DNA of 64,000 nucleotides from Candidatus Bathyarchaeia archaeon (GCA_037481775.1 JBBFKZ010000001.1:128001-192000); one strand, 5' to 3'; positions 2,100-57,315 are shown, counted from the first letter of the stretch. The notes: generated from the letters alone by a model not told the origin. Made by a program: numbers and translations.

Positions 2100-2156
2100 C
2101 CGTCATATTTGGCGGCTATTAGCCATTCATTGCAGAAACCTATAGAGGGGCTATCG
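2100..2156 (+). repeat. Dispersed ~55-bp intergenic element, copy 1
   Basis: CCGTCATATTTGGCGGCTATTAGCCATTCATTGCAGAAACCTATAGAGGGGCTATCG; reverse complement of copy 4 with 4 mismatches in 57 nt. Confidence 0.95.
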
Positions 2157-2319
2157 CACACTTTTCGTTTGCTTAGAGTACCGTGGGCCCCTCGTAGATT
2201 AAGATAGAAGCGGTACATGCGCTATGTTAAGTCGTGTTTCGTTAAGTGTTTGCTCAAAACTTATTAACTTCCATCATTTAATCTTCACTAATTCATGAGT
2301 ATTTGTGGATAAGACGAAA

Positions 2320-3579
2320 ATGAGCAGCATAAGTAAAGCCTTGCCTAAACAACCAGAAGTTAACATAGGCACCATAGGGCATGTAGATCATGGGAAAACA
2401 ACTTTGGTGCAAGCGTTAACGGGCGTCTGGGCATCTCGGCACAGTGAGGAACTGAAAAGAGGCATAACCATCCGTTTAGGCTATGCGGATATGCCGATTT
2501 ACAAATGCCCAAAATGCGAAACGCCGCGAAACTATTCAACTAAGCCTGTTTGCCCGAACTGCGGCTCCGAAACGGTTTTCGTTCGTGCTGCGAGCTTCGT
2601 TGATGCGCCGGGGCATGAAGCGTTAATGGCAACTATGCTTTCAGGTGCCGCCATAATGGATGGCGCGCTACTTGTGATAGCCGCTGATGAACCATGCCCT
2701 CAACCGCAGACCCGCGAGCACTTAGAGGCAGCACAGATTATCGGCATAAAAAACATAATAATTGTCCAAAACAAAATTGACATAGTTGATGAGAAAAGAG
2801 CCCGCAAAAGCTATGAAGAAATCAAGGAGTTTGTTAAAGGAACCATCGCAGAGAACGCACCTATAATTCCTGTCTCAGCGCAACGTGCAATAAACATTGA
2901 CGTGCTGCTTAACGCCATAGAGGAAATTATACCCACGCCAAAAAGAGATGAAACAAAGCCGCCGCTCATGTATATTGTCCGCTCTTTTGATGTCAACAAA
3001 CCTGGAACACCTATTGAAGAATTGCAAGGCGGCATTATAGGTGGCACTATAACTCAAGGGAAATTTGCAGTTGGAGACGAAATAGAGATACGACCAGGCA
3101 TCAGCATGGAAAAAGAAGGCAAAACAGTTTATGTTCCTTTGATAAGCGAAATAGTAAGTTTGCATGCGGGCGAGAGAGACGTAAAAGAGGCGACATGCGG
3201 CGGATTAGTTGGTGTTGGAACGTTGCTTGATCCATCTTACTCGAAAGCAGATGGCTTAACTGGAAACATTGCGGGGAAAACAAGTTTACTGCCTCCAGTA
3301 TTGTCAGAGCTAACTTTAGAAACCCATATTTTAGAAAGGGCTGTGGGAACCAAAGAGCAGTTGAAAGTCGAAAAAATAAACCCTGACGAAACATTGCTTC
3401 TTCATGTAGGCGCCGCTGTAAACATTGGAAAAATTATATCAATCAAAAACAATATTGTTAAAATCAAGTTGAGCCGACCGATCTGCGCACAACCGAACTC
3501 TAGAGTTGCCCTAAGCAGAAAGATTGCGGCGCGATGGAGACTAATAGGGTACGGAATAACATTAGATAAGGCTACATGA
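2320..3579 (+). CDS. eif2g: Translation initiation factor aIF2 gamma subunit
   Basis: QPEVNIGTIGHVDHGKTT, RHSEELKRGITI, Zn knuckle, DAPGHE, NKID, WRLIGYG. Confidence 0.97.
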   Translation: MSSISKALPKQPEVNIGTIGHVDHGKTTLVQALTGVWASRHSEELKRGITIRLGYADMPIYKCPKCETPRNYSTKPVCPNCGSETVFVRAASFVDAPGHEALMATMLSGAAIMDGALLVIAADEPCPQPQTREHLEAAQIIGIKNIIIVQNKIDIVDEKRARKSYEEIKEFVKGTIAENAPIIPVSAQRAINIDVLLNAIEEIIPTPKRDETKPPLMYIVRSFDVNKPGTPIEELQGGIIGGTITQGKFAVGDEIEIRPGISMEKEGKTVYVPLISEIVSLHAGERDVKEATCGGLVGVGTLLDPSYSKADGLTGNIAGKTSLLPPVLSELTLETHILERAVGTKEQLKVEKINPDETLLLHVGAAVNIGKIISIKNNIVKIKLSRPICAQPNSRVALSRKIAARWRLIGYGITLDKAT

Positions 3580-3584
3580 GAACT

Positions 3585-4022
3585 TCAAGCACTTATTATC
3601 CCACGCGCTTTTAACAGTTCATGCGCTTTCTTAAGCAGAATTTTGGCGTTTTGGAAAGTAAGCTTTTCTATTGCGCTTTGATAATCTAGCCAAGTATACC
3701 CAATATGCTCGTAGGATAATGCGACTTTCTCTGTGCTAGTTTCGGCTAAAAAGAAAATTACTTCCTTGTGAACCTTTGCGCCTTGCCTTCTGTAAAAGTA
3801 CTCTATTTTTTCCCTGAAACCTTCAATGAACCGCGCGTCAGTTATGCCAGTTTCTTCTCGAAGTTCTCTAACGACCGTGTCTTTTTCACTTTCATTTGGC
3901 TCAACATTGCCTTTTACAAAATCCCAATGCCCAGCTTCATAATGTAGAAGAAGATATTTAACATCTTTATTCTTCAAGAACACTACGGCGCCACAGGATT
4001 TCTCATGAAGCAACGACTTCAC
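3585..4022 (-). CDS. Nudix hydrolase (Ap4A hydrolase-like)
   Basis: Nudix box KGNVEPNESEKDTVVRELREETG; SCGAVVF, GHWDF and LSYEH motifs. Confidence 0.9.
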   Translation of the reverse strand: MKSLLHEKSCGAVVFLKNKDVKYLLLHYEAGHWDFVKGNVEPNESEKDTVVRELREETGITDARFIEGFREKIEYFYRRQGAKVHKEVIFFLAETSTEKVALSYEHIGYTWLDYQSAIEKLTFQNAKILLKKAHELLKARGIISA

Positions 4023-4209
4023 TACCTTTTTGTGTTCAACTCAGTTTATGCAAAGGTTATTTAAAAGTAATACGTGCTTTCGGAATGCCGTGACATACGT
4101 TATTTCTGCTTTGAAAGCTGCATTATTAAGTGCTGAAGAACAAACAATTTTAATCCTACTTAAAGAGACTTTAACAAGGATCCTGAAGCTTAATGGTGCG
4201 AATGATTAA

Positions 4210-4623
4210 ATGAAGCTCATAGGCGAAACTGTTGGAGTGATTTTGGACTCAAACGCTTTGTTTGTTCCCCTTCAATTTAAAATCGACATTTTCAATGACC
4301 TAAAAATTCTACTAAACAGGAATTTTGAACTGATTTTATTGTCACCTGTCAAACGTGAACTAGAAACACTTGCGGAAAAAGGTTCGCCTAAAATGCGTAA
4401 AAATGCCTCTTACGCATTGAAGCTAGCTGAAAAATGCAGGTATATCGAAATCGCTGCATCAGATTCAGAACCCACTGATAACTTAATAGTTAAAATAGCT
4501 AAAGAATGGCGTTTCCCAGTATTCACCAATGACAAACAACTTAGGAAGAGGCTAAGAGATATAAATGTGCCAGTAATTTATGTGAGACAAAAATCGCGTC
4601 TCGAAATTGACGGAATGATCTGA
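4210..4623 (+). CDS. PIN-domain ribonuclease (Fcf1/Utp24-like)
   Basis: VILDSNAL, TDNLI, VFTNDKQLRKRL; conserved position before rpoE'. Confidence 0.88.
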   Translation: MKLIGETVGVILDSNALFVPLQFKIDIFNDLKILLNRNFELILLSPVKRELETLAEKGSPKMRKNASYALKLAEKCRYIEIAASDSEPTDNLIVKIAKEWRFPVFTNDKQLRKRLRDINVPVIYVRQKSRLEIDGMI

Positions 4624-4626
4624 AAA

Positions 4627-5229
4627 ATGTTTAAACTAATAACACTACAGGATACTATTCGCATTCCGCCTGAAACCTTTGGCAGCCCTCTCGAGAAAGT
4701 AGGTCACGACCAAGTAAAGGTCAAATACGAGGGTGTTGTAGACGAAGAGTTAGGCTACGTCATAGCAGTGACAAGTGTAGACGTAAGCCCCATAGGAAAG
4801 ATAATTCCTGGAGATGGCGCAACTTATCATAAAGTAACGTTTTCGCTGTTAACTTTTTACCCAGTCCTTCAAGAAATAGTTGAAGGCGATGTGGTGGAAA
4901 TTGCGGATTTTGGTGCCTTTGTACGCATAGGGCCTGTAGACGCGTTGCTTCATGTTTCGCAGCTCATGGATGACTACATGTCTTATGATGAAAAACAAGG
5001 AGTTTTACTTGGAAAGGAAACTAAAAGAAAATTAATGAGCGGAGACCATGTACGCGTCAGGATAACAGCCGTTTCTCTCGGCAGGGCTGGAAGCTCAGGG
5101 AAAATCGGTGTAACTGCGAGGCAACCGTTTCTGGGCAAGCTAGAATGGATTAAGCTCGAGACTTCTCAACCGAAAGAAAACGCAGAGAAGAAAGCAACAG
5201 AAAACAAAACAGAACAGGAGCGCCAATGA
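4627..5229 (+). CDS. rpoE1: RNA polymerase subunit Rpo7 (E')
   Basis: IRIPP, IIPGDGA, S1 domain FGAFVRIGPVDALLHVSQ, RQPFLGKLEW. Confidence 0.96.
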   Translation: MFKLITLQDTIRIPPETFGSPLEKVGHDQVKVKYEGVVDEELGYVIAVTSVDVSPIGKIIPGDGATYHKVTFSLLTFYPVLQEIVEGDVVEIADFGAFVRIGPVDALLHVSQLMDDYMSYDEKQGVLLGKETKRKLMSGDHVRVRITAVSLGRAGSSGKIGVTARQPFLGKLEWIKLETSQPKENAEKKATENKTEQERQ

Positions 5230-5230
5230 G

Positions 5231-5416
5231 ATGAATGAGAAAGCTTGTACGAACTGTCATTTCATAACTAAAGAAAACGTGTGCCCAAAGTGCAAGTCAA
5301 CAAGTCTAAGCGAAGACTTCAGCGGCATAGTCATTATGTTCGAGCCGGAGACTTCAGTTATTGCAAAGGTTATGAGCATAAAAGAAAAAGGGCGTTATGC
5401 CCTAAAGATCAGGTAA
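5231..5416 (+). CDS. spt4: Transcription elongation factor Spt4 (RpoE'')
   Basis: ACxxC...CPxC...SEDFSG...GRYALKIR. Confidence 0.95.
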   Translation: MNEKACTNCHFITKENVCPKCKSTSLSEDFSGIVIMFEPETSVIAKVMSIKEKGRYALKIR

Positions 5417-5492
5417 ATCTTGCCTTTGCTAAGGTAAACACGCTATTAAAAATGCTTTAAGGCAGATTCGCCTGAGTTAAAAGGGTTGAAAA

Positions 5493-6023
5493 ATGGCTGT
5501 TGCCTATACTATCACTTCAGAACTTCGTGCGAAGCTTAAAGAGCCTTTTGGCACTTTAATCCGTGGCTCATTTGATGAAACCATCAACAAACTAAATGAA
5601 ATCTTGAAGACTGAAAAACCGCCCGTTCTGGTGTCCGTCGGAGACATGGTTTCACGTAATCTTCATGAACATTTGATTCCCACGCAACTTTTTATTACTG
5701 ATAACAAGAGCATGCGAAAAAGAATAAAGCCGAGAATGTTTGCGGCTAAACTTTTTCATGTTAAAAATCCGCCTGGGACAATAACTGAAGAAGCAAAGGC
5801 GGCGGTAAGGTCTGCCTTGGAAAGTGGCGAAACTGCTCAAATAATTGTTGACGGAGAGGAAGATTTGCTGACACTTATCGCCGTTCTATACGCGCCAGAG
5901 AACTCGTTAGTCATTTATGGGCAACCATCAGAGGGTATAGTAGCCGTCAAAGTTACCTCTGGAAAAAAGAAGGAAGCCACAGAAATTCTAAAAGCGATGG
6001 AAACTGTTCGAAAAGCTAAATAG
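5493..6023 (+). CDS. GTP-dependent dephospho-CoA kinase (DUF359)
   Basis: LKEPFG, VGDMVS, NPPGTIT, VDGEEDLL, YGQP; conserved position after spt4. Confidence 0.9.
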   Translation: MAVAYTITSELRAKLKEPFGTLIRGSFDETINKLNEILKTEKPPVLVSVGDMVSRNLHEHLIPTQLFITDNKSMRKRIKPRMFAAKLFHVKNPPGTITEEAKAAVRSALESGETAQIIVDGEEDLLTLIAVLYAPENSLVIYGQPSEGIVAVKVTSGKKKEATEILKAMETVRKAK

Positions 6024-6068
6024 GAAGTAGAAGTATGAAACTCTCTGCTCTAAACAAGTGATGAAGAG

Positions 6069-6380
6069 ATGGAAGTTAAGATAGTATCAATAAAGGCGAA
6101 CCCTCTTCTGAAGCGGAAGGAAGCTCGTTTCAGAGTGGAACATGATGTTAAAGGGAAAACGCCTACGCGATTGGAAGTTAGAAAGGCCATAGCGGCTGAA
6201 CTGAAGATAAATGAAGAGCTTGTTTTTATTAAGAACATGCAGACCTTAACTGGGACAAACACAACTTTTGGAGTTGCTAACGTTTATGAAACGGGTGACT
6301 ACGCAAAACTTATTGAGCCTGAGTACATAAGAAAACGTAACAGTCCCTCAGAAGAACAAAAAGAAGAGGCGGCGAAGTAA
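6069..6380 (+). CDS. rps24e: 30S ribosomal protein S24e
   Basis: NPLLKRKE, TPTRLEVR, EPEYIRKRN. Confidence 0.93.
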   Translation: MEVKIVSIKANPLLKRKEARFRVEHDVKGKTPTRLEVRKAIAAELKINEELVFIKNMQTLTGTNTTFGVANVYETGDYAKLIEPEYIRKRNSPSEEQKEEAAK

Positions 6381-6381
6381 A

Positions 6382-6645
6382 ATGTCGAAGAAAGCAAGCG
6401 AAAAGAAAGAACCTGCTGCAGAAGAGGTAAAAACGCAGAAGTCCGGCAAAGCAACGCCAGCGCCTAAAGCAGAAAAGAAGAAAAAAGATGAGAAGGGCGT
6501 TCACTCTTTGTATAAAGTAGAGGGTGAAAAAGTTACGAGGTTGCGTCCAACCTGCGAGCGCTGCGGGCCAGGATACTTCATGGCTAACCATCATGACCGC
6601 TACACTTGTGGTCACTGTGGTTTCACCCGATATAAGCAGGCTTAA
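6382..6645 (+). CDS. rps27ae: 30S ribosomal protein S27ae with N-terminal low-complexity extension
   Basis: CERCGPGYFMANHHDRYTCGHCGFT. Confidence 0.95.
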   Translation: MSKKASEKKEPAAEEVKTQKSGKATPAPKAEKKKKDEKGVHSLYKVEGEKVTRLRPTCERCGPGYFMANHHDRYTCGHCGFTRYKQA

Positions 6646-6681
6646 TAAGCAGTTTTAAATTCTCAGTGTACATATACTCTC

Positions 6682-7116
6682 GTGATTCGCATGCTTAGAG
6701 TTAACGTGTTCATAACGAGCATTTCTGCAGAGCGTTTTTGGGACATGAGAAAACCATTTCCGCCCATACAGATAAGCACGAACATTAACATTGTGGGCAT
6801 GGAGAAAATAGCGGACGGCACCTTGGATGTCCCATTTATTTTGTCAATAAATTATAACCCGTCAATAGCGCAGATAAGCCTCAAAGGCAACGCCTACGTT
6901 GCTGGTGACAAAAACGAAATTGAGAAGGCACTTAAGGATCACGATGAAAAGAAGCCGCCGCCACAGCCTATCGTGCAGTCAATATCCAACGTGGTCTTCA
7001 TTGAATCAGTTCTCATATCGAGGACACTGAACATTCCGCCGCCGATTCCTTTGCCGCAAGTGCCTGAAGTCAAACCGCCAGCTGCAAAACCTACCGGCAG
7101 AGATTACACTGCATAG
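6682..7116 (+). CDS. Conserved archaeal hypothetical protein (possibly SecB-like fold)
   Basis: Alternating beta strands, a helix, then a PPPIPLP tail; the fold call is an impression only. Confidence 0.6.
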   Translation: MIRMLRVNVFITSISAERFWDMRKPFPPIQISTNINIVGMEKIADGTLDVPFILSINYNPSIAQISLKGNAYVAGDKNEIEKALKDHDEKKPPPQPIVQSISNVVFIESVLISRTLNIPPPIPLPQVPEVKPPAAKPTGRDYTA

Positions 7117-7156
7117 AATAAAAGAAGCAGACAACCCAGGTGGGCAGAACCACTGT

Positions 7157-7930
7157 TTAAGAGATGTATGTGGTTTTTTTATCTTCTTCTCTGCGTATTT
7201 CTTCAGCTTGTAACGCCCTTTTCTCCTCGATTTTCTGCAGCCGCGCCAGCATACTTTCTGCCTTGGCAATTTCCTCGTTAAACGCAGTCAAATCAACATT
7301 TAAGTTAAATATCTTATTCAAAACTTCTAAAACGCTTCTTGCAGACAAAGGGTCAGGCAAATATCCACGTGTTTCTCCCAAGAGGCAAAGTGCTTCGATT
7401 TTCCTAAACCGCGCTAATCCCAGTATTAACCCTGCTGTGCCGACAATAGGGCTTCCTGAAGCGCTAACGATGGCGCCTGCACGCAATGCGTTATCCAAAA
7501 GTTCCTTAGAAGTGGCAGCCGCAAACACTTTAGGTTTATCTTTTGCTTCCATGCGGTAGCCACCGATGGTTACGATGGTCTTCACACCATGTTTTTGAGC
7601 AAAATCAAGCATTCGACCAGCAATTTCGTATTGTCCTTCAATCGTTTGCGATTGGCTATCGCCAGTAAAAAGAATCAAATCAGTTGTGTCTCCTTCGTTT
7701 TTCCAGAAATAGAAGGCTCCACGCAGAAGGCGAACACTTCCTTTCTTGTTTACGAGCACAAAATAGGGGAAATGTGGAGAATAAAGATGCGCAAACTTTT
7801 GTGCTTTCAACTGTTTGATTAGATAACGTATGGCAATTTTTCCCACAAGCCCTAAACCTGGAAAGCCTTCGACCAAAACGGCGTTAGAGGGGTTGATTTG
7901 TCTGAGCTCTTTGATGTATGTTTCTTTCAT
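7157..7930 (-). CDS. Proteasome assembly chaperone (PAC2 family)
   Basis: LVEGFPGLGLVGKIA, FTGDSQ, TIGGY, LLGETRGYLPDP; follows nop10. Confidence 0.9.
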   Translation of the reverse strand: MKETYIKELRQINPSNAVLVEGFPGLGLVGKIAIRYLIKQLKAQKFAHLYSPHFPYFVLVNKKGSVRLLRGAFYFWKNEGDTTDLILFTGDSQSQTIEGQYEIAGRMLDFAQKHGVKTIVTIGGYRMEAKDKPKVFAAATSKELLDNALRAGAIVSASGSPIVGTAGLILGLARFRKIEALCLLGETRGYLPDPLSARSVLEVLNKIFNLNVDLTAFNEEIAKAESMLARLQKIEEKRALQAEEIRREEDKKTTYIS

Positions 7931-8097
7931 TTTGGCAATTGCTCCTCTTTCAAGATTATTCTATATCTGAGGTATTTATCGTCAGGAGAAAACTTGGGCG
8001 GATGGGGAATCCGAACAGTCCCGCCGCAGTAGGGGCATACATCCTTCTTTAGAGTGTACCGATTGCAATCTGCGCATTTTCTTAATAGCCAGACCAT
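7927..8097 (-). CDS. nop10: H/ACA RNP protein Nop10 (56 aa, missing from the ORF track)
   Basis: Hand translation MVWLLRKCADCNRYTLKKDVCPYCGGTVRIPHPPKFSPDDKYLRYRIILKEEQLPK; follows aIF2-alpha. Confidence 0.95.
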   Translation of the reverse strand: MVWLLRKCADCNRYTLKKDVCPYCGGTVRIPHPPKFSPDDKYLRYRIILKEEQLPK

Positions 8098-8885
8098 TAC
8101 TTTTCCCTTCTAAAAACGCCTTGACCACCAGCCTTAACGATGTTTGAGACGACATTTTGTGCAACTTTCTGTAGAATTTCTTCTGCGCGCTTATAGTTCT
8201 CTGCCATTACCTCAACAGCATATTTTGGAGCAGCAATTACAAAGAAATTAACGTTTGCACCTTTTACTTTTTCGGTTTTCACCGCGTTGAGGAAAGCGTT
8301 TTTGATTATCTTAACGCCGTTAGGTTTCATGCAGCGCACTTCAAGAATACCTTTTACCTTCACCAGTTTAACGTGTATTCGCTCAGCCGCAACCTCAGCA
8401 AAAGCCTTAGCGAAATTTTCAGGAATACCTATTTTCATCAAAACTTCTGGTCCTTCAGTGATCGTTTTTTCAAAACCTTCGTATAGACCATACTTTTCCT
8501 CTACGAGGGTTCCAGCCTTCGCATACACTTCTTCAACTGGCAATCCGAGTTTTTCTGCAACATCGCGAAGCAAGGACTCAGCCTTTCTGCCTTGCTTCCA
8601 CAGCTTAATCTTTTCAATCTTTTCTCGCTTAGTCACCCGTCTAAGGGATAAATCAATGTGGCCTTTTTCCGTATCTACGCGTAAAACTTTCAGAACAACT
8701 TTTTGTCCTTCCCTGACAAAATCACGAATGTTCCTTATCCAGCTGCTGCTAATTTCAGAAACATGCAGCAAACCGCGCTTGCCATATTCATCAAGTTTGG
8801 CGTACGCTCCATAGTCAGTGACAGTTTCTATCGTGGCAATTACGAGATCGCCAACTTCAGGCCACTCGGGTTTGCGTTCCGCCAT
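8097..8885 (-). CDS. eif2a: Translation initiation factor aIF2 alpha subunit
   Basis: S1 domain PEVGDLV...GLLHVSEISSSWIRNIRD, KGHIDLSLRRV, AAPKY; probable start MAERK. Confidence 0.96.
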   Translation of the reverse strand: MAERKPEWPEVGDLVIATIETVTDYGAYAKLDEYGKRGLLHVSEISSSWIRNIRDFVREGQKVVLKVLRVDTEKGHIDLSLRRVTKREKIEKIKLWKQGRKAESLLRDVAEKLGLPVEEVYAKAGTLVEEKYGLYEGFEKTITEGPEVLMKIGIPENFAKAFAEVAAERIHVKLVKVKGILEVRCMKPNGVKIIKNAFLNAVKTEKVKGANVNFFVIAAPKYAVEVMAENYKRAEEILQKVAQNVVSNIVKAGGQGVFRREK

Positions 8886-8898
8886 TAAATTTTCGTCC

Positions 8899-9096
8899 CT
8901 ACTCAAGTACTGATTGTAACTCGCCTTTTATTTTTACTTTACCGCCCGTTGGCTCCGCAAGCACTTCACTACACACATTGCAAACAACCTTGTTCGTCGC
9001 GTTACTGAAGACTAACTGCTCATTTCCACATTTCAAACATTTGATGCGTAAAAAGCGGCTTTTAGGCTTAGGAATAAGTTTGTCCCATTCGGTCAT
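8899..9096 (-). CDS. rps27e: 30S ribosomal protein S27e
   Basis: PKSRFLRIKCLKCGNEQLVF...CNVC..LAEPTGGK. Confidence 0.96.
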   Translation of the reverse strand: MTEWDKLIPKPKSRFLRIKCLKCGNEQLVFSNATNKVVCNVCSEVLAEPTGGKVKIKGELQSVLE

Positions 9097-9111
9097 TATA
9101 CTTCCTCCTCC

Positions 9112-9387
9112 TTAGGCTATAACAAGCTTCCTCAAGCGTATGCCATCTTTGTGGCGCATGTAACCACATTTTTTGCACTTAAGCCTTAAAGTCTGCTTTT
9201 TTGTAGTTTTAGCAAATTCATGCTGAAGCGGATATTTTTGTCCACCATACCCTTTCTTTTCGCGTTTGTGATGCCGCTCGCCTTTCGCTAACGCACGACG
9301 CTTTCCTGCCTTGTAGAGACTGACCGAATGAACCTGATGAGCCTTACATTTCGGACAGTACGTGGTAATTTCCTTAGGTACGTTCAT
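9112..9387 (-). CDS. rpl44e: 50S ribosomal protein L44e
   Basis: MNVPKEITTYCPKC..H, KGYGGQKYP, AKTTKK, CKKCG. Confidence 0.96.
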   Translation of the reverse strand: MNVPKEITTYCPKCKAHQVHSVSLYKAGKRRALAKGERHHKREKKGYGGQKYPLQHEFAKTTKKQTLRLKCKKCGYMRHKDGIRLRKLVIA

Positions 9388-9518
9388 GTTTATCGCTTCC
9401 AACTTCGCAATAGAAAAAACATGCACACTCTTATACTTTTTCTGTTTCTATCTCGCATTCTCTAATAGAAAAGACGCCTGCGACATAATTATTTGGAAGG
9501 CGCGCAGCACCCTGCCGT

Positions 9519-9571
9519 GATAGCCCCTCTATAGGTTTCCTGCATTGAATTGCTAATATGCGCCAAATATG
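9519..9571 (-). repeat. Dispersed ~55-bp intergenic element, copy 2 (inverted relative to copy 1)
   Basis: GATAGCCCCTCTATAGGTTTCCTGCATTGAATTGCTAATATGCGCCAAATATG; one extra C compared with copy 4. Confidence 0.95.
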
Positions 9572-9681
9572 CTACTTCAAGTTTTGTGAAACATACCCTT
9601 TCAGCCAGCACGTACTGCTTATACCCCAAGTATGGCTGATTAGAAAAATAGAAGGTCTTAGCAGGCGTGGTGCTTGAAGTT

Positions 9682-10023
<342 letters not shown>

Positions 10024-10121
10024 CTAGACGAGCAATATTAGGCTTTCTACCACAGCTGTACGCAGGTTACTTTTTCGCAAAAACATAATTTCGTCGAGAA
10101 TTATAGTCTATACAGATTAAA

Positions 10122-10904
10122 ATGCGCAAGTATTATTTGCCGCGTGGTATGCGCTACGCCACACTTGAAGAGCGGAAACATTTTTACACGCAAGAGTTTA
10201 GTCTCGAAAAACTGCAAGGATGGCTTGCAATGCTTAAGGGCAGGGTCAAATTTGCCGCTATTATTGGCAGACACACTAAGATATACCCTGAAAAATACAG
10301 GGATGACGCTGACACAACTATCCTTATAGACGAGTACAAAAGTCTAAGCGAATTGCGTGATTACTTAATTGAGTTTTTACCCGAAGCAGCATATTATGAT
10401 CGAAACGTTTACGATGAAAACGACCGCAAAACAGGGCAGGAACTTGCGTTTGACCTTGACCCAGAAAACATTACCTGCCCCATACACGGAACTCTCACTG
10501 ATAAGATGAAGCGGCATCAAGGCTTAAGCTTCTGCAAGATAGAACTAAACATGGTGAAGGCGCAAGCAGCTAACCTCTACGAGTATCTTGAAAAGCAGTT
10601 TTCGAATATGAAAATTGTTTATTCTGGTAGAGGGTTTCACATTCACGTTTTTGATTCCGAGGCTTACGCCTTTAGCCGAAAAGAACGGCGCCAAATTGCC
10701 CGTATAGTAAAAGAAAAAGGCTTTCAAATTGACGAGTGGGTAACTGCTGGAGGTATGCGGTTGATTCGGCTTCCTTACAGCTTGCACGGCTTGGTGTCAC
10801 GTATTGTGCTTCCAGTGGAGAAAAGCGAACTTGATCGCTTTGATCCCGTACATGACGAAAGGTGCATGCCCAAGTTTCTAAGCCAATCTACGCTTATTTC
10901 TTGA
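10122..10904 (+). CDS. Second archaeo-eukaryotic primase (PriS-like) protein
   Basis: AEP motifs ELAFDLD, YSGRGFHIH, IDEWVT..RLIRLPYSLHG. Confidence 0.8.
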   Translation: MRKYYLPRGMRYATLEERKHFYTQEFSLEKLQGWLAMLKGRVKFAAIIGRHTKIYPEKYRDDADTTILIDEYKSLSELRDYLIEFLPEAAYYDRNVYDENDRKTGQELAFDLDPENITCPIHGTLTDKMKRHQGLSFCKIELNMVKAQAANLYEYLEKQFSNMKIVYSGRGFHIHVFDSEAYAFSRKERRQIARIVKEKGFQIDEWVTAGGMRLIRLPYSLHGLVSRIVLPVEKSELDRFDPVHDERCMPKFLSQSTLIS

Positions 10905-11060
10905 CTTCTTTGGCTTTCTTCTCTTTTTTTCCATAATAGTAATACTTTTTCTTTTTCTCGGCTTCTGCTTTTTTTGCCTTTGACATCAAAACTCCTCAAA
11001 TCCTTATATCTCACAGTATTAATAAAAAGATTATCCAAGAAATTTAAATCGAAAGATTTA
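10682..11060 (+). repeat. 379-bp diverged direct repeat, copy A
   Basis: Colinear with 14175-14553; covers the 3' end of the PriS-like gene, the micropeptide gene and its upstream region. Confidence 0.92.
10894..10986 (-). CDS. 30-aa Lys-rich micropeptide MSKAKKAEAEKKKKYYYYGKKEKKAKEVKK (copy A)
   Basis: GAGGAG SD upstream; 13 synonymous and 1 non-synonymous codon differences versus copy B. Confidence 0.8.
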   Translation of the reverse strand: MSKAKKAEAEKKKKYYYYGKKEKKAKEVKK

Positions 11061-11214
11061 ACATGATTGCCCTTTCTTTCATAAATAATAGAGAACTCGA
11101 AAAATTCGATGTTCGTGTTTATGGGCTTATTTTATGGACTGCACATTTTGTTTGAGTTGGCTTCTGGCAGTAAGCAGGTAAAGAAAAAAGGAGGTTCTGT
11201 ATTTCTAGCAGACT

Positions 11215-13866
11215 TTAGCGTTTTCTGAGCATTAGCACCATTAGGACGCCAATTGCAATTATAGCTATAAAGAGAGCTATTACAGCAGGGATGAAATACT
11301 GATCAGCTATTGATGCTGGCTGAGGTGTGGGCGGAGGTGAAGGTGGAGGCGCATCGCTTGCGTAGAAGTATGTTGTGGCTGAAGAGCCATAGTAGGAGTT
11401 TGATCCCTTGAAAGAGGCGGTAAGCATGAATTTACCCGGTATTTGTGGGGTCCAGACAAAGCTGAAGGTGCCGTCAGCATTGGTCGTGGTAGTGCCAATG
11501 TCGTAGAAGTTGTTGTTGCTGTCAAGAACGCTTAGAGTGACTTCTACACCCTTAACGTTTTCTGGGTACACTTGCTGCTGATAAACATATTCCATAAATT
11601 TGCTTTGGCATTCTTCAGACACTGCTGGTACGCCGTTTGGGAACTTTAAAGCAACTAATCTTTGTTGCGTGCCAGGAGAGATGTCAGTAACACTGCCTGT
11701 TATTGTTATTGGCGTAGCAGTTGTAACACCTATGTTCGGCGCAGAGACAGTGGTTTTGGTCGGACCTTTGCCGAAACAGTATAACATGTTATCATATGCG
11801 TTTAGCGAAAATAGTTTCCCGTAGGCAACTGCCGCGGATCTAATGTATGTACCTAGTTCACTCCAGATTAGTTCGCCATTAGACGCATTCAGCGCTAGCA
11901 TTTGTGCGCCATGGAACAAGGGCGGATTGTATTCGTGGCCAATTGCGAAGTATGCTACATCACTTGTTTGGGCATCACAGTTGAAAACCCACAGTGGCCA
12001 AATACCGTACGGAGTTTCAAGTCCAGGATCCCCTATCAGCGTAGTTGTGTTAGTATACCATCTTAGGTTCCCCGTTTGCGTTTCAAAAGCCCAGATGTCT
12101 CCGCCTAAACCGTACCAATACATTACACCGTTTGCAACCCATGACTTAAGACTAAACAGATCGTAGGGATTGGGTGTTCCATCTCCGTATGGAGTTTTCA
12201 GCGTTTGTTCCCATAGTTTGTTTCCTGTTCGTACGTTGTAAGCGACCACTTTATAGTTGACGTCGTTTGCGATGGCAAGCACTCCTTCTCCGAATGAGCT
12301 TGTTGTTCTAGTGAAGGGCAGTAGCGCAGAGCATTCAGGGTAAGTCAAGTTTTGTAACCATAGCACATTGCCGGTATTCACGTCCATGCTTGCCACTACA
12401 AGCCAGCCGGGCACTTCTCCGCCAACTCCTTGTCCGTGAACGTAACCACCGCTCATAACGACGGCGTCGCCAGTTATAGCATTTATGGCTAATGATGGGC
12501 TGATAGGTTTACCAGAAATTTCTGTTGGTACAGGTTTTGCCCACATTACGCCGAGACGGAAGTCGATAACCGTATTTACTGATGGCCCCCAACCCCAAGA
12601 GTTGCCAAGTGCTTGAGACATGTTGAAAGCGCATAGAACTGGCGTGGTGATGTTTACTGTGCCTTTTATTGGTGGGCTACCGAAAGTTGGGGCAGGACCA
12701 AATGTTGGCATAGTACCACGTGTCGAGTTGATGTAGTAACCTATCAAGTGACCATGAGCATCTGTCCTAAGTGTCATTGAAGTGCCGTTAACAACGCTGA
12801 GAACGTATTTTCCAGTGAAGGCTGAATACATGTTGTACTGTGTTCCAACGTTGGAAATCGGTATGCCACCAGTTTCCGATGCAGAGAGAGAACCAACAGT
12901 CCAAATGTAAGGACCAACAACACCGTACATGTTAACAGTTTTCCATTCGGCAGTCATACCACATCGCAGCACAGAAGTGGTGTTTATTACAAACAGTGTT
13001 TCGCCCGTGTATATGTCCACTGCGACGATGCCATTTGAGTAGCCGGTGGTTTCAGGGTACCATGTTGAGTATAGTATACCGTTTATAATTACTGGCGCGT
13101 ATTGCGGCCAATACTGTCTTGTCGACCAGTAATGGCCTGATTCTTGGTTTCCTTCTATAGGGCCGCCAACCACGCCGCCTGGGCACCAAGGTTTGGTCCA
13201 TAGCACGTGACCAGAATATACTGATTCTGTGTATGGGTTATATACGCTGTTAACCGCGTAAAGCCCTGTTTGCGCGAAGGTAACTCCGGCAAGACCAAGC
13301 CACGGTCCAGTTATCTTGTACCAGTTTTCCACATTCTGCGCTGAAACGGGGGTTTCCCAATATTCCGTCGGAAGCGGAGTTTTTGGATATGCATACTCGT
13401 AAACTGGTTCCTCTTTCACCGTTAGCTCTACCCAGTCAGTTTCGCTTGGTTGATTTACTAACCCGCCAAATGGATTAGCAGAGCTGCGAGGACTTAGCGT
13501 TTGCCCTAAATAGACGAATCGGAATTTGTATATGCCTGCTTTGGTTGGAGTAAACGTGGTAAATGTACCGCCAGTCGTGTCGCCCGTGAAATTCCCCATA
13601 TACACGATGGTTCCATCAGGTTCCATGCGGTAAAGCGTCATGTTCGTGGGGCGTTCATTTGTTTCCATTGGTGTGGCAAGGAAAAAGTTAATAGTCGCTG
13701 TCTGACCGACGCCTATGGGGTTTGGTGCAACATTAATAAATGCGTATGTTGGTATTGGCGTTCCTACTGGAGGGTAGACTTGACTTAAAGCTATTGGCAA
13801 TGTCAATGTGAGTGTCAATAGAATTGCAAGAATTATGTGAAAAAATTTGGCTTTGGCAATTTGCAT
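11215..13866 (-). CDS. Secreted, C-terminally anchored PQQ-like beta-propeller protein
   Basis: Signal peptide, Ig-like N domain, repeated A.D..TG..LW blades, Pro-rich linker, TM+KR tail; probable start MQIAK. Confidence 0.85.
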   Translation of the reverse strand: MQIAKAKFFHIILAILLTLTLTLPIALSQVYPPVGTPIPTYAFINVAPNPIGVGQTATINFFLATPMETNERPTNMTLYRMEPDGTIVYMGNFTGDTTGGTFTTFTPTKAGIYKFRFVYLGQTLSPRSSANPFGGLVNQPSETDWVELTVKEEPVYEYAYPKTPLPTEYWETPVSAQNVENWYKITGPWLGLAGVTFAQTGLYAVNSVYNPYTESVYSGHVLWTKPWCPGGVVGGPIEGNQESGHYWSTRQYWPQYAPVIINGILYSTWYPETTGYSNGIVAVDIYTGETLFVINTTSVLRCGMTAEWKTVNMYGVVGPYIWTVGSLSASETGGIPISNVGTQYNMYSAFTGKYVLSVVNGTSMTLRTDAHGHLIGYYINSTRGTMPTFGPAPTFGSPPIKGTVNITTPVLCAFNMSQALGNSWGWGPSVNTVIDFRLGVMWAKPVPTEISGKPISPSLAINAITGDAVVMSGGYVHGQGVGGEVPGWLVVASMDVNTGNVLWLQNLTYPECSALLPFTRTTSSFGEGVLAIANDVNYKVVAYNVRTGNKLWEQTLKTPYGDGTPNPYDLFSLKSWVANGVMYWYGLGGDIWAFETQTGNLRWYTNTTTLIGDPGLETPYGIWPLWVFNCDAQTSDVAYFAIGHEYNPPLFHGAQMLALNASNGELIWSELGTYIRSAAVAYGKLFSLNAYDNMLYCFGKGPTKTTVSAPNIGVTTATPITITGSVTDISPGTQQRLVALKFPNGVPAVSEECQSKFMEYVYQQQVYPENVKGVEVTLSVLDSNNNFYDIGTTTTNADGTFSFVWTPQIPGKFMLTASFKGSNSYYGSSATTYFYASDAPPPSPPPTPQPASIADQYFIPAVIALFIAIIAIGVLMVLMLRKR

Positions 13867-48282: not shown

Positions 48283-48288
48283 ATAAAA

Positions 48289-54325: not shown

Positions 54326-54441
54326 ATGAAATATGCAGCAAGAGGCTACAGTTGGGATTCTTAGTTAGCGGGAAGTCAGCTACTTATGGGAGAAGCTTGA
54401 ATCGCGCGGGGTATAAGCTTGTATGGGAAATAATTTTGTTG

Positions 54442-57138
54442 TTAACTTAGGAAACTTTCCAGTTTAGTTAGTCCGATGATTTCGTCGAAGCTTAAGCCCA
54501 GCGCATCCAGCACTTGCTCAAAAGTTGACTGTAAGTATGCAATATATTTGTCCACGTCAACTTCATTGTTTGTCGCAAGCTCTACTGGTTTTACATGAGG
54601 CTCCCTAACGGTTTTGACGAAACTAATCAAATCGCCTGCTCGGATTTCTATACCGTTCTTTTCCAAAATCTTGGCAGCTTTAACGTGCTGTGGCGTGGTT
54701 TTCGTGTAGCGGTAAAGCTCTTCACCTAAAACAACATGAAAGGCAAGTTCGCTGAGGCTTTCCCATTCTCTTCGCTTCAGCCGCATGTAACGCTCACGTA
54801 CAATGTTGGCTATGTCCTTCTTCGCCTTTTCGAAGTCCGCCGGCGTCTTAACCTGCGCAAGCCGCTCTTTCATCTGGTTAAACGCGTTTTTTATGTAGAT
54901 GGGTATGTGCTTTTTCTTTCCTGTAAGCCCCTTAACGTCTACAGTGCCGTCTTCCAAAACACCCAGATAATTCTTTTTGCGGCTGCTGAAAACTGCGTAT
55001 CTGTAAACTTTATCCACGTCTATATTCATTTTTAGCGCTTGCTCGGTCCAACGAGCTAGCTCGGCAATTTGCTCCTTAGTGGGGTTCTTAAGGAAAAGGC
55101 TATCCGTGTCCCCGTAAAGCACCTGTATACCTAACTCGCCGGCTTTGTTGAGTATTTGCGTTATAGCATGGCGGCCTATGGCTGCAGTGGCTTCCGCTAC
55201 TGGCGGGCAATACAAATCGAAGCTGGCGGCTCCGAAAACTCCGTAGCTGGCGTTCAAGATAACTTTTAATGCGCCTTGGGTGATGCCATACCAGCTTCGC
55301 AGCTCAGCAGGCAAGCTTTTGTCTTTGGCTTTTAGTTTGTACCAGCGTACACGTAAATCTCTCAATGAGCCAATAAGCAGGCTTTCTAAGGCTCGTTTTC
55401 TGGTGCAAACCCAATGCGGCGTGCCAGGTATCACATTTTGGCGGCATTCCGAATGTGGACAGAGGATTGACTGGTAGCCGAGGTTCCAAACCTTAATTAT
55501 TGAAGGATATAGGCTTGGAAAGTCCATGACGGCGACGTTGAAGTGGACGCCGGGCACGGGTTCGACGACTATGGCGCCTTTGTATTTTTTGCCTTTGATG
55601 ATGGCGGTGGTTGCGGTTTTGCCTTTCTTCGCAAGTATGTCTTCAGCGTTGGGAATCAGCATGTTGCGTCTGCGGTGCTCTCGGTGCATGAAGTTGCGTA
55701 TCCAGCGGCTTACTCCCTGGCGGCTTACGTCTTCCATGGGCATGCTGCTTATTCGCGCGAGAACGAGGATTAGCTTCATGGCTAGCTCGTCTTCGACGCT
55801 GGTCAGTTTGAAAGTGATTTCTGAGTCTCTGAGGCAGTATTGCGCCAGTTCGGAGTAAGTTAGTTCTCCGAAGCTTTTTTCCAGCCGAATTTTTTCCACG
55901 CCTATTATGGCTTTGCCCACGTCATCAAGTGTCACGTCTCGATAACGATTGTTGTAGGCGTAGATTTGAATTGACCTGTTGAAGAAGAACTTGTATAAAT
56001 CAATGTGCACGCCATATTTCAGTAAACAGACGCGCTTACCAACCTCTATGGGAATCTCGCTCTTTTTAATACCTAGATTCAGCGCGCGGTGAGCAAGATA
56101 GCGTAGGTCAAAATCGTCGCCATTGAAAGTTAAAATGAACGGGTATTCCCATAGCACTTCAAAGACCGCTCTGAGCAGTTCTTCTTCCTTATCAAAATAT
56201 TCCAGAGAAACGTCCGCAGGCAAGTGTTCTTTTCCCTCACGGACACCTTCGCGTCTTAGAAGAAGCACTCTTTTTTTATTGTCTGAGCTGTATACGGAAA
56301 CACAGATGATTTTATATTCAGCCTTGCGCGGGTCTGGCACTCTCGTGGAGACAGGCGCGTAAACCTCTATGTCAATGGCTGCTCTGCGAAATTTAGGCGC
56401 AGGATACTCCAGCAGCCTCGCCCAACTTTCAACGTATTCAAGTTCTTCAGCTGACTCCTCTTTGAAAATGGCCTTTATCTGCTCAAGAGTTTCTTCAGTC
56501 TTCTCCAAGGTTACAGGAACAAGGTTGCCGTTTTTGACTTCATAGATCATTCCTGGAAAAAGCTGTCTATCATAAATGTAGCATTGGTAGTACTTTATTC
56601 GTGCCTCCCAAACCTTTGCTTCTTCATTATTCACCATTCCTTCAGATATTTTCGGGAAATCCTCCGGTATTATGTCTCTTATAGTGCCTTGTGGGCGGCC
56701 ACCTATAGCTAAAGGATCATTTGCAACAATTTTTGTTACCTGCACTTTCCTATCGAGAAGGGGATCGAACTTTTCTTCAAGAACAAAACGGTCAAAACCC
56801 TCATGCTTCACTAGTCGATCAATCTTCTCCAGCTCGTATTGTGAAAGGTTGGTGAAACAATAAGGCTTATGCCCAGTGTTATCATACCAGAAATAAATTT
56901 TTTCCGAGATAGGCTCATAGAGTTTAATCACCGCTTTCCTTGACTGCCCATCGTAGGCTGCTGAAACAAAATATGACGGCGGCAGGTTCTCTGGTGCTAC
57001 AGGAGGAAAAGCAAGTTTTGCTGCCTTTTTCGCGTCAGCAGGCGTCGCTTCAGTGCTGAACGCAACAGCTTTTGGCGCAGCTTCGTTGGGAGATTTCTTC
57101 TCCACCTGTGAATAGTCCAGTAAACTTCTCTGTGCCAT
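54442..57138 (-). CDS. polB1: Family B DNA polymerase (PolB1)
   Basis: ExoI DIEV, FNGDDFD, DFPSLYPS, KVILNASYG, YGDTDS, KKNY; WYDNTGHKPY N terminus. Confidence 0.95.
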   Translation of the reverse strand: MAQRSLLDYSQVEKKSPNEAAPKAVAFSTEATPADAKKAAKLAFPPVAPENLPPSYFVSAAYDGQSRKAVIKLYEPISEKIYFWYDNTGHKPYCFTNLSQYELEKIDRLVKHEGFDRFVLEEKFDPLLDRKVQVTKIVANDPLAIGGRPQGTIRDIIPEDFPKISEGMVNNEEAKVWEARIKYYQCYIYDRQLFPGMIYEVKNGNLVPVTLEKTEETLEQIKAIFKEESAEELEYVESWARLLEYPAPKFRRAAIDIEVYAPVSTRVPDPRKAEYKIICVSVYSSDNKKRVLLLRREGVREGKEHLPADVSLEYFDKEEELLRAVFEVLWEYPFILTFNGDDFDLRYLAHRALNLGIKKSEIPIEVGKRVCLLKYGVHIDLYKFFFNRSIQIYAYNNRYRDVTLDDVGKAIIGVEKIRLEKSFGELTYSELAQYCLRDSEITFKLTSVEDELAMKLILVLARISSMPMEDVSRQGVSRWIRNFMHREHRRRNMLIPNAEDILAKKGKTATTAIIKGKKYKGAIVVEPVPGVHFNVAVMDFPSLYPSIIKVWNLGYQSILCPHSECRQNVIPGTPHWVCTRKRALESLLIGSLRDLRVRWYKLKAKDKSLPAELRSWYGITQGALKVILNASYGVFGAASFDLYCPPVAEATAAIGRHAITQILNKAGELGIQVLYGDTDSLFLKNPTKEQIAELARWTEQALKMNIDVDKVYRYAVFSSRKKNYLGVLEDGTVDVKGLTGKKKHIPIYIKNAFNQMKERLAQVKTPADFEKAKKDIANIVRERYMRLKRREWESLSELAFHVVLGEELYRYTKTTPQHVKAAKILEKNGIEIRAGDLISFVKTVREPHVKPVELATNNEVDVDKYIAYLQSTFEQVLDALGLSFDEIIGLTKLESFLS

Positions 57139-57258
57139 CCCGATTCTCGTCCCTAGCCTACACTTATAGGCTAGCGCAGACTAAAATCTTTACCGACCAC
57201 GCGCAGCGGAGTTACGCTACTTCAGAATGCAACTATTTGCTTGAAATAGATAATAAGA

Positions 57259-57315
57259 CGATAGCCCCTCTATAGGTTTCTGCATTGAATTGCTAATATG
57301 CGCCAAATATGACGG
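57259..57315 (-). repeat. Dispersed ~55-bp intergenic element, copy 4
   Basis: CGATAGCCCCTCTATAGGTTTCTGCATTGAATTGCTAATATGCGCCAAATATGACGG. Confidence 0.95.

Follow-up and report, generated by a model that had tools for sequence, protein, structure and literature searches.

The stretch of DNA analysed here (the window) spans 64,000 nt of the 1.82 Mb genome of a Candidatus Bathyarchaeia archaeon (G000; window G000:C1:128001-192000) and contains four copies of a short intergenic element, at positions that differ by only 1–2 nt from those of the original prediction. Copy E1 (2100-2157, plus strand) separates priS (169-1446) and Gins51 (1449-1997), a Pfam-supported plus-strand pair covering 169-1997, from the aIF2-gamma operon downstream. 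Copy E2 (9518-9572, minus strand) is inverted relative to E1, carries a 1-nt insertion (GCAGGAAAC) and lies between a divergent unnamed ORF upstream (9684-10088) and L44e-S27e-aIF2alpha-PAC2 downstream. Copy E3 (41205-41262, minus strand) is preceded by a divergent prefoldin beta gene (41389-41757) and followed by the gene of a 577-aa Ribophorin-I-like protein (39267-41000), while copy E4 (57258-57315, minus strand) stands between S6e (57362-57760, minus strand, Pfam), which runs in the same direction, and a family-B DNA polymerase gene downstream (54442-57138). The first two junctions had been predicted at these coordinates, but the last two had been misplaced: 41207 is prefoldin (divergent)/Ribophorin-I-like protein rather than S6e/polB1, and 57259 is S6e, element, PolB rather than pfdB/membrane protein. 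Most of the predicted gene labels were confirmed by Pfam (priS, Gins51, aIF2-gamma, PIN, RpoE', Spt4, DUF359, S24e, S27ae, PAC2, aIF2-alpha, S27e, L44e, PolB, S6e and prefoldin), whereas the "ferredoxin" (9684-10088) and "nop10" (7982-8164) gave no Pfam match.

A repeat search within the window aligned 2100-2156 with 57259-57315 over 57 nt (93 % identity), with 41212-41262 over 51 nt (90 %) and with 9537-9571 over 35 nt (86 %), and E3 and E4 are 98 % identical, so "near-identical", as the copies were first described, means identities of 86–98 %. The 52-mer proposed at that stage, searched with up to three mismatches, matched one of the four copies (copy 4, exactly) and nothing in 100 shuffles. 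As had been noted, the flanks of the copies are unrelated, giving no alignment with one another, and the window yields no match to the recombinase and transposase families PF00589, PF00239, PF07282 and PF01797. The four window copies fold with no advantage over shuffled sequences (z between −1.9 and +1.0) and RNAalifold predicted no structure for the element, the one hairpin showing changes on both sides in only three cells; Rfam at gathering threshold returned tRNA as the sole match type in the window.

E1 and E2, which are inverted relative to each other, enclose a 7.4 kb cassette (2158-9517, based on Pfam and gene order in relatives) that comprises aIF2gamma, NUDIX, PIN, rpoE', spt4, DUF359, S24e, S27ae, an ORF, PAC2, a small ORF, aIF2alpha, S27e and L44e. 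PriS-Gins15/L44E-S27E-aIF2alpha-Nop10 is described as a conserved archaeal neighbourhood (PMC2643942), and in the window its priS-GINS half is severed from L44e, just as S6e stands apart from aIF2-gamma. Among the informative loci of relatives, L44e follows GINS in the same orientation within 3.5 kb in 91 of 110, and S6e immediately precedes aIF2-gamma in 22 of 23 loci of other genera, which contain no element match. The conserved aIF2-gamma promoter/leader (TGCTCAAAACTTATTAAC..., 2228-2304, plus strand; compared between G000, G018, G043, G021, G014 and four same-genus loci) is found 20–40 nt past the S6e stop in other genera and about 100 nt past E1 here. Element-free relatives have this canonical order and not that of the window. 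Two sister species (G003 and G004) show the order priS-GINS-E-L44e...aIF2gamma-E(inverted), which is the window order with the E1–E2 stretch inverted relative to priS-GINS; the GINS-to-L44e connection that a swap between copies was predicted to restore is therefore present in both, with a copy at the joint. The window and these two species are one inversion of the cassette apart. In G001 and G002, the element joins the same cassette to a block whose end in G000 is marked by a different copy, C1:57019.

The proposed whole-genome search for the 55-mer uncovered a family of 56 copies in G000 (E ≤ 1e-3), and the element is likewise multi-copy in several sister genera and in each of the five other congeneric species. 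A crude ORF map places 54 of the 56 copies between genes; spacing along the chromosome averages about 33 kb, and no homology extends past the core across the 56. As the element occupies 54 spacers and the next-largest family has about six members, it is the sole high-copy spacer repeat in G000. Its core consists of invariant blocks, CATATTTGG..TAnTAG and TGCAGAAACCTATAGAGGG, around a hypervariable box some 5 nt long, and it keeps 85–95 % identity between genera while the tail decays. The core closes with a TATA-like CCTATAGA plus GGGGCTAT, which resembles a stronger TATA plus GGGGGCTATAG module in sister genera. As a guess, a protein-binding or promoter-like role might maintain core identity across genera. 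A CRISPR repeat was rejected, the copies being single and nearest neighbours within contigs at least 3.9 kb apart. Archaeal origin recognition boxes follow the consensus of a dyad TTCCA-n-TGGAA and then a G-string, clustered beside cdc6; this candidate was rejected as well, since the core (TTCAATGCAGAAA, 8 nt, GGGG) has no dyad, a different spacing and a dispersed rather than clustered distribution. The spacer upstream of cdc6 contains TTTCCAATGGAAATTTTGGGGTG.

Comparison within the genus showed how the sequences on either side of the copies are distributed. We examined 60 copies in G002 and G005, 56 of which had both flanks mapped; the flanks of 48 of these 56 map to two different places in G000, and in 43 of those 48 both ends lie beside a G000 copy. 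Chromosome arms are permuted at the element genus-wide, and both products keep a copy. The window copies take part as well: the arms of E3 are separated in G005 (L122, L127), the S6e arm of E4 is joined to another down arm in G002 and G005 (L086, L142), and its PolB arm is joined to another up arm in G002 (L113). Under strict arm assignment, junctions equal to those of G000 amount to 2 of 22 in G002 and 4 of 25 in G005 (each at about 81 % nucleotide identity to G000), while G002 and G005, at 91.5 % identity to one another, share 9 of 14; junction loss scales with sequence divergence. The sister genomes are kin, so that their agreement overstates independence. A census of breaks across 400 kb of G005 found them at 8 of 10 copies, compared with 17 breaks at about 390 other spacers, the latter number being an estimate and the census covering one genome pair (Fisher p=3e-9). 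The predicted enrichment of the element at synteny breakpoints is thus seen in this census. The genome is fluid in any case, since 13 of the 25 informative breaks lack any copy; the 8–12 breaks attributable to copies make up about one third to one half.

Such an enrichment might arise by positional coincidence if the element were a cis-regulatory or small-RNA module at operon boundaries, where breaks are tolerated, and had no part in the exchange. Copies do stand at operon heads (before rpoB, aIF2-gamma, L44e and polB) and tails (after L30 and S6e), and the TATA-like core end with its sister-genus counterpart would suit a regulatory module. We nevertheless regard coincidence as very improbable: the enrichment holds when only 130 spacers, a third, are allowed to break (p=1e-5), arms join precisely at the copy with both products of each exchange retaining one, and the copies interact, as shown by their concerted evolution described below. 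Copies also face the next gene in a nearly random orientation (31 same and 23 opposite in G000; 8 of 14 co-oriented among G007/G014 copies with the second module), and Rfam gave no match across 12 element loci at E ≤ 1.

The junctions could also reflect metagenome contigs misjoined at a 55-nt repeat, as every compared genome is a metagenome assembly, several contigs of relatives end about 100 nt or less from a copy (G001:C25, G005:C25), and Logan contigs end within the element, bridging no junction. However, an independent 1.86 Mb single-contig assembly, L164 (98.95 % identity over 19.6 kb), has the G000 order across E1 and E2, so misassembly does not account for these two junctions, the only two of the 56 in G000 that an independent assembly backs. 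The alternative states are each common to two independent assemblies (G003 with G004, G001 with G002), and G002 and G005 share 9 of 14 junctions. Discordance rises with divergence, which would not be expected from random misjoining. An assembly artefact is scarcely credible as an explanation.

The copies themselves bear traces of exchange. They are homogenised within genomes, with a consensus that differs by species, and even between the 99 %-identical strains G000 and L164 copy interiors differ while the flanks stay identical: two copies (122 nt) show 9 differences where 1.2 are expected, and both L164 copies carry a box variant lacking among the 53 in-register copies of G000. Three polymorphic core sites, compared two at a time, show all four gametes in every pairing, which suggests several exchange intervals in the core, although recurrent mutation could also produce such a pattern.

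One way to read these data is that the core is recognised by a dedicated enzyme, either a site-specific recombinase or a nuclease whose cuts are repaired from other copies, so that the chromosome is shuffled like a large shufflon. The break rate per site, which far exceeds that of other spacers, would fit such an enzyme, and so would the rewritten copy interiors, the conservation of the core across genera beside a decaying tail, and the invariant blocks around a hypervariable box, as expected for a recognition site at the point of cutting or exchange. Tyrosine recombinases are also at hand, with six matches above cut-off in G000. They occur, however, in 36 of 41 relatives, with or without the element, and the co-occurring tyrosine/serine recombinase or transposase for which a search had been proposed did not emerge from the five families searched among these genomes. 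Serine recombinase is confined to a single one of the 41 genomes and missing from all those with many copies, TnpB occurs in 7 and Y1 transposase in 5, both lacking in G001, G003, G004, G007 and G014, and reverse transcriptase in none; no family tracks the element, which is weak evidence given that only five were covered. The core also lacks dyad symmetry around the box on inspection, and the mosaic haplotypes suggest that exchanges ended in two or more intervals. We therefore consider a dedicated enzyme unlikely, while homology alone has its own difficulty: a 55-nt stretch at 86–98 % identity offers little length for efficient homologous recombination, and for so small a target to account for roughly one third to one half of the breaks, more than homology may be needed.

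Sister genera offer a hint on the origin of the element. In G043 it measures some 100 nt or more, includes a short hairpin and additional modules and has no consistent ORF, and its start (CATATTTGGCG) and a later segment (CGCCAAACCATG) form an inverted match of 8–11 nt by eye, past which the conserved sequence runs on; the 55-nt core of the window genus has no terminal inverted repeats. Positions turn over between genera: both neighbours could be mapped for 23 G043 copies, and a G000 copy lies close to both orthologues in only 1 of these and close to neither in 13. Likewise, the site between S6e and the aIF2-gamma promoter is occupied in the window genus only. On grounds of size, copy number, position turnover and this short inverted match, the small, non-coding, intergenic repeat may be called MITE-like, and the original suggestion of a mobile-element footprint fits the longer form and the turnover. 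A REP/BIME repeat mobilised by RAYT, which would call for an imperfect palindrome of about 35 nt and a Y1 transposase, was rejected in view of the missing fold signal, the rarity of Y1 and its absence from five element-carrying genomes.

These observations would also agree with a still active non-autonomous transposon, the rearrangements being by-products of aberrant or alternative transposition rather than of recombination between resident copies. Within the genus, however, copy positions are stable and copy-bearing arm ends persist while only their pairing changes (the 43 of 48 above), a pattern that reciprocal exchange predicts and new insertions do not. The one presence/absence case among the 56 copies (L143 versus G000) is a replaced spacer and not a clean insertion, inspection of the 56 copies revealed no common or duplicated flanking bases, no partner transposase was found among the Y1 and TnpB families, and the viral contigs yielded no copy. 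Active transposition thus appears quite improbable.

We consider it probable that the core of this MITE-like repeat is a hotspot for homology-driven ectopic recombination. The element would represent the conserved 55–60 nt 5' core of an older composite intergenic repeat, likely once mobile, whose copies would now serve as dispersed patches of homology with unusually frequent ectopic recombination, probably carried out by the general homologous-recombination machinery and not by a dedicated enzyme. Non-crossover outcomes (gene conversion) would keep the copies of one genome alike, whereas crossovers would swap the sequence downstream of two copies, giving inversions between inverted copies or translocations. 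In the presumed order of events, the genus ancestor would have gained copies in the intervals from GINS to L44e and from S6e to the aIF2-gamma promoter, and later exchanges among copies would have parted both pairs. The central proposal that exchange at the element permutes blocks of core genes is supported, and both observations named beforehand as refuting it turned out the other way, in the element-free relatives and, across E1 and E2, in L164; of its wording as a site-specific recombination site, the exchange stands, and the evidence leans to a homology-driven process because of the mosaic haplotypes, the concerted evolution and the lack of a co-occurring recombinase among the tested families. 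The element thereby marks sites of chromosome-arm exchange between related species, splitting two otherwise conserved archaeal clusters.

Shufflons and invertase switches (R64 Rci/sfx, Hin/hix, Cin/cix) likewise use short repeats in both orientations, between which inversions permute blocks, and the element resembles them in having several short repeats in both orientations with inverted intervening segments. Those systems act locally, over a few kb, in the service of one gene and with a dedicated recombinase adjoining the sites, whereas here about 50 sites are spread chromosome-wide and the window holds no recombinase. IS elements and rRNA operons rearrange chromosomes by homologous recombination between dispersed repeats of 1–5 kb, inverted copies giving inversions; the element, a similarly dispersed substrate of ectopic recombination, is 55 nt long and encodes nothing. 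In Thermococcales, chromosome inversions are reported to be driven by the integrase of plasmid pTN3, a mobile-element tyrosine integrase that uses any sequence pair down to 104 bp, and archaeal chromosomes are there also shuffled until close relatives hardly align, through exchange between short identical segments yielding what homologous recombination would yield (PMC5495485). Here, by contrast, exchange centres on a single family of 55-nt repeats, and no integrase was seen to follow the distribution of the element. Correia elements are known at rearrangement breakpoints. Together with ERIC and REP, the Neisseria Correia element belongs to the small intergenic repeats of bacteria, such as MITEs, which according to a review are short, non-coding and multi-copy, can carry promoter-like sequence and add to genome plasticity (PMC10969869), features shared by the element along with a longer form in relatives. 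The element differs from them in the window genus by the lack of clear terminal inverted repeats, target duplication and a found partner transposase, in that the 5' 55–60 nt alone are kept, at high identity across genera, and in that about four fifths of its copies coincide with synteny breaks among congeneric species.

A repeat search recovered the four copies of the 55–60 nt element where the original prediction had placed them, at 2100-2157 (+), 9518-9572 (-), 41205-41262 (-) and 57258-57315 (-), hereafter E1 to E4. The stretch 2100-2156 pairs with 57259-57315 over 57 nt (93 %), with 41212-41262 over 51 nt (90 %) and with 9537-9571 over 35 nt (86 %). E3 and E4 are 98 % alike, E2 holds a 1-nt insertion, and no alignment among the four loci extends past ~55–60 nt. 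With the 52-mer first proposed and up to three mismatches, E4 alone was matched, and shuffles of the window gave no match. Pfam supported nearly all of the gene labels, except for the supposed ferredoxin (9684-10088) and nop10 (7982-8164), both with zero Pfam matches. Two junctions had been interchanged: E3 lies between a divergent prefoldin gene and a Ribophorin-I-like gene, and E4 stands downstream of S6e and upstream of a family-B polymerase gene. As had been stated, family searches returned no tyrosine or serine recombinase, TnpB or Y1 transposase match in the window.

The window further holds a single tRNA (32772-32869, -; Rfam tRNA 51 bits, isotype unnamed by ARAGORN), whose length of 98 nt probably reflects an intron, and a 503-aa ORF (28287-29798, +) in which the repeat search found internal repeats with periods of 63–315 nt. 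Pfam describes the gene at 59120-60652 (-) as a fusion of a formaldehyde-activating enzyme (Fae) with an OMP-decarboxylase/HPS-family protein, with weak N-terminal helix-turn-helix matches; in many genera it is conserved next to S6e or MFS. A likely replication origin precedes the window by ~24 kb; it is an AT-rich spacer of 425 nt (C1:103605-104029) that lies 5′ of a cdc6/orc1 gene and contains ORB-like repeats, namely TTTCCAATGGAAATTTTGGGGTG and its inverted counterpart.

In the whole genome under study (G000; 1.82 Mb in 54 contigs), blastn-short at E≤1e-3 detected 56 copies, 54 of them intergenic on a crude ORF map and distributed over all four kinds of spacer, i.e. tandem in both senses, divergent and convergent. 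The element is the sole high-copy spacer repeat of G000, occupying 54 spacers, with the next family counting ~6 members. Its 5′ edge is sharp, its 3′ edge fades into variable tails, and homology between any two G000 copies does not reach past the core plus a few bases of tail. Among 41 relatives, the element is multi-copy in all five congeneric species and in genomes of two further genera; none was found in the 16 genomes from other families of the order. A wider draw of 81 family genomes yielded matches at E≤1e-6 in 11 genomes from 10 of 70 genera, with at least 25 first-look candidates in seven genomes besides G000.

We then compared the gene order around the copies with that of relatives. 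S6e stands directly 5′ of aIF2-gamma in 22 of 23 informative loci from 25 other genera, the exception being the sister-genus genome G007, and three further loci stop short of the upstream gene; the element is absent from all of these loci. The aIF2-gamma promoter region (TGCTCAAAACTTATTAAC...) is kept across genera 20–40 nt past the S6e stop, and in the genus studied here the element and a ~100 nt tail are located upstream of it. In metagenome and genome collections, L44e is co-oriented and at most 3.5 kb downstream of GINS in 91 of the 110 informative loci, a count that leaves out 37 loci too short to tell; the gap is at most 304 nt in 30 of the 91, and one to three genes lie between in the remainder. 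The two archaeal clusters that the original prediction had cited as known are thereby confirmed from data, and the PriS-Gins15/L44E-S27E-aIF2alpha-Nop10 supercluster has been described by Berthon and colleagues (PMC2643942). In L177, a locus of another Bathyarchaeia lineage with a GINS 59 % identical, the L44e-S27e-aIF2alpha-PAC2 block is inverted ~9 kb downstream of GINS and no element copy was detected, so that the GINS/L44e neighbourhood is also breakable without the element.

Within the genus, the 7.4 kb cassette between the inverted copies E1 and E2 (2158-9517, aIF2gamma to L44e) was seen in three contexts, with a copy at each joint. The species G003 and G004 show the order priS-GINS-E(+)-L44e-S27e-aIF2alpha-...-PAC2, followed on the opposite strand by S27ae...PIN-aIF2gamma and then E(-), which equals the order of the window except that the segment bounded by the two inverted copies is turned round, and which provides the swapped GINS-L44e junction that had been predicted, with a copy at the joint. 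In G001 and G002 the same cassette is likewise flanked by two inverted copies, and its L44e end is joined via the element to a block located at C1:44-57 kb in G000, where this block terminates at another copy (C1:57019). In G003 that block is attached to the aIF2-gamma end instead. Two of the three cassette states are each present in two independent assemblies. Between GINS and L44e of G004 (locus L083, 8777-8894), a full copy is followed after ~20 nt by a 5′-truncated copy of a different subtype with duplicated GCCTATTAGCC, which may be the scar of an imprecise exchange.

That such arrangements are products of misassembly at the repeat is the less likely explanation. Logan contigs built from 31-mers of four DNA runs end inside the element and bridge neither the junctions of the window nor the alternative ones. 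The 1.86 Mb metagenome contig L164, 98.95 % identical to G000 over 19.6 kb, has the order priS-GINS-E-aIF2gamma...L44e-E-ORF9684 of the window; 207 alignment columns distinguish it from G000, as does a 3.1 kb indel, and it therefore represents another strain, assembled separately. This independent support covers two G000 junctions, E1 and E2. The indel removes window positions ~11061-14174, including a gene for a 916-aa PQQ/Ig-like protein, from the L164 strain and lies between 300-nt direct repeats (10682-10981 and 14175-14474, 83 % alike) inside two paralogues that Pfam assigns as primase-S-like; it is a recombination between these direct repeats and does not involve the element.

To follow the exchange of arms across the genus, 30 copies each from G002 and G005 were extracted with 1.5 kb per side and the flanks mapped to G000. 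Both flanks were mapped for 56 copies, and in 48 of these they fell at two different places in G000, with both ends within 600 nt of a G000 copy in 43 of the 48. Six of the 56 were collinear with a G000 copy, and two were collinear where no G000 copy had been detected, one of them being degenerate in G000 and the other lacking altogether. Under strict assignment, requiring the right side and the right strand of a G000 copy, junctions equal to those of G000 numbered 2 of 22 for G002 and 4 of 25 for G005, while G002 and G005 agreed on 9 of the 14 up arms present in both. G002 and G005 are 91.5 % identical in their flanks, and either is ~81 % identical to G000; junction loss therefore follows divergence, which evolution predicts and random misjoining does not. 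The same set of arm ends keeps carrying a copy and the pairing alone changes, so a copy is retained at both products, which is the hallmark of reciprocal exchange among copies already in place. At one G005 joint (C33:215419-215442) the up and down arms have copies in G000 (C15:16621 and C13:3916) and the core is missing; since only tail-like bases (TAACACGAGCAGCAG) are left there, the core was apparently deleted once the exchange had taken place.

How far the element contributes to the overall loss of synteny was assessed in a census of 400 kb of one G005 contig, which aligned to G000 in 37 collinear blocks with 36 joints. Eleven joints lie at G000 contig ends and are uninformative, 8 carry a copy in G005, 4 carry one on the G000 side only, and 13 have none, 2 of these touching a contig end on one side. 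Within this stretch, 8 of 10 element copies coincide with a break versus 17 in the remaining ~390 spacers (odds ratio 88, p=3e-9). That the copies merely coincide with operon boundaries, where breaks could be better tolerated, is thus the less likely reading, as the enrichment persists at p = 1e-5 if one third of the spacers are taken as break-tolerant. The genome is generally fluid; at the element, breaks are some 20–90 times more frequent per site, and roughly one third to one half of the synteny breaks that separate species of the genus are attributable to it. A pair of IS200/IS605-type genes (Y1 transposase and a TnpB-like gene) is found at G000 C10:3599-4928, and its 1.6 kb homologue elsewhere in G005 (C33:~250.9-252.5 kb) gives rise to two element-free breaks.

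The copies evolve in concert. Each species has its own consensus, mostly AGAGATTCATTG in G002, often AGTGGTTCATTG in G005, AGCAATTCAATG or AGCGATTCATTG in G000 and always GGAGCCTAATAG in the sister-genus genome G014. Between the L164 strain and G000, E1 and E2 keep identical flanks but have different interiors, with 9 differences in 122 nt versus 1.2 expected (p=5e-6), a density that a few other 61-nt windows share; the L164 strain has the box, the hypervariable centre, as CGGTT in both copies, a form found in 0 of 53 in-register G000 copies. Three polymorphic core sites show all four gametes for every pair among the G000 copies, which suggests several end points for exchange or conversion tracts, although recurrent mutation may also contribute. 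A CCAAT...CAGTAG subtype is tied to the L44e arm in four species, whichever the upstream arm.

The core consists of two conserved blocks, CATATTTGG-n4-TA(T/A)TAG and TGCAGAAACCTATAGAGGG, with the variable box of ~9 nt between them. In the sister-genus genome G043 it belongs to a longer form comprising the core, a short hairpin (TTGGCGC...GCGCCAA; 84.7 % paired, with changes on both sides in 3 cells), CCATGTTGAAAAC, a purine run and a TATA-like box with GGGGGCTATAG, the latter being common to G043, G007 and G014. This second module, at ~+60 to +150 nt past the core, presents a strong TATA-like box (TTTAAAA/TATATAA) and then GGGGGCTATAG, resembles the core's own CCTATAGAGGGGCTAT and is absent from G000 (loci L036, L037, L244, L248, L252, L255, L262, L265, L267 and L268 of G007 and G014; L345-L374 of G043); the next ORF is co-oriented with it in only 8 of 14 G007/G014 copies. 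By eye, long-tail remnants were seen in a few G000 copies (C1:5285, C5:9663, C15:16621 and C17:1833). We take the element to be the 5′ core that has survived from a MITE-like composite repeat. For 23 G043 copies with both neighbours mapped, a G000 copy was near both orthologues in 1 case, near one in 9 and near neither in 13, so positions turn over between genera. Active transposition, which would place new copies, is nevertheless less likely as the source of the rearrangements within the genus, where the arm ends stay the same.

Homology-driven ectopic recombination among the dispersed copies is the best-supported mechanism, in which gene conversion would homogenise the copies and crossovers between them would swap the arms; its enzymology we infer. 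A dedicated reader or nuclease acting on the core would also suit a repeat this short, with its two invariant blocks on either side of a variable centre and its rapidly rewritten interiors, yet we consider such an enzyme unlikely; none of the five families searched (PF00589, PF00239, PF07282, PF00078 and PF01797) tracks the element. Tyrosine recombinases occur in 36 of the 41 relatives irrespective of the element, a serine recombinase in one that is not a many-copy genome, TnpB in 7 and Y1 transposase in 5, neither tracking the element, and reverse transcriptase in none. A few integrase genes lie 0.7–1.1 kb from a copy (G002 C9, G005 C33), and by a rough estimate this proximity is at about chance level. 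Equally doubtful is the more elaborate form of this idea, in which a putative protein would break or exchange DNA at the variable centre, making the ~fifty sites per chromosome a genome-wide shufflon that rewrites its own sites in concert and reshuffles ~35 kb core-gene cassettes in a clade of Bathyarchaeia.

Several other roles were considered and dismissed. A promoter of the neighbouring gene is out, given that the next downstream gene has the same orientation as the copy in 31 and the opposite one in 23 of the 54 intergenic G000 copies, and the aIF2-gamma promoter in particular is a separate conserved sequence ~100 nt further. A regulon of information-processing genes shows no clear enrichment: 30 neighbours were scanned, 23 had Pfam matches, and 8 of the 23 are translation, transcription or repair genes, the rest being metabolic or transport genes. 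Against a structured RNA stand the missing Rfam match, the lack of Watson–Crick covariation in 137 in-register copies of 146 collected and an RNAalifold run on 24 G043 copies with 0 pairs and no consensus structure; the predicted folds of the four window copies do not surpass those of shuffled sequences. Small ORFs at the conserved ATG of the G043 form span 2–55 codons and are mutually unrelated, no larger autonomous element was found around G000 copies, and two patterns of the element gave 0 matches in viral contigs, leaving no sign there of a viral or plasmid carrier.

The element offers a testable handle on chromosome reshuffling in an abundant uncultured lineage, on the minimum repeat length that drives recombination and concerted evolution in archaea, and on the conserved function such a core may have. 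In practice, breaks at the element should be expected in synteny-based annotation, binning and scaffolding of these genomes. Archaeal gene order is usually attributed to slow random breakage or IS elements, and IS elements and rRNA operons are known repeat substrates for rearrangement. Thermococcales have been described to undergo chromosome inversions driven by a plasmid integrase (PMC5495485), and small bacterial repeats are reviewed as rearrangement substrates (PMC10969869). Repeats as substrates of rearrangement are hence an already known phenomenon. New is the element itself, which matches no Rfam family and of which literature searches found no description in Bathyarchaeia. New as well are its size, its cross-genus conservation, the proportion of its copies at synteny breaks, and its disruption of two gene neighbourhoods that rank among the most conserved in archaea, PriS-Gins15/L44E-S27E-aIF2alpha and S6e-aIF2gamma.
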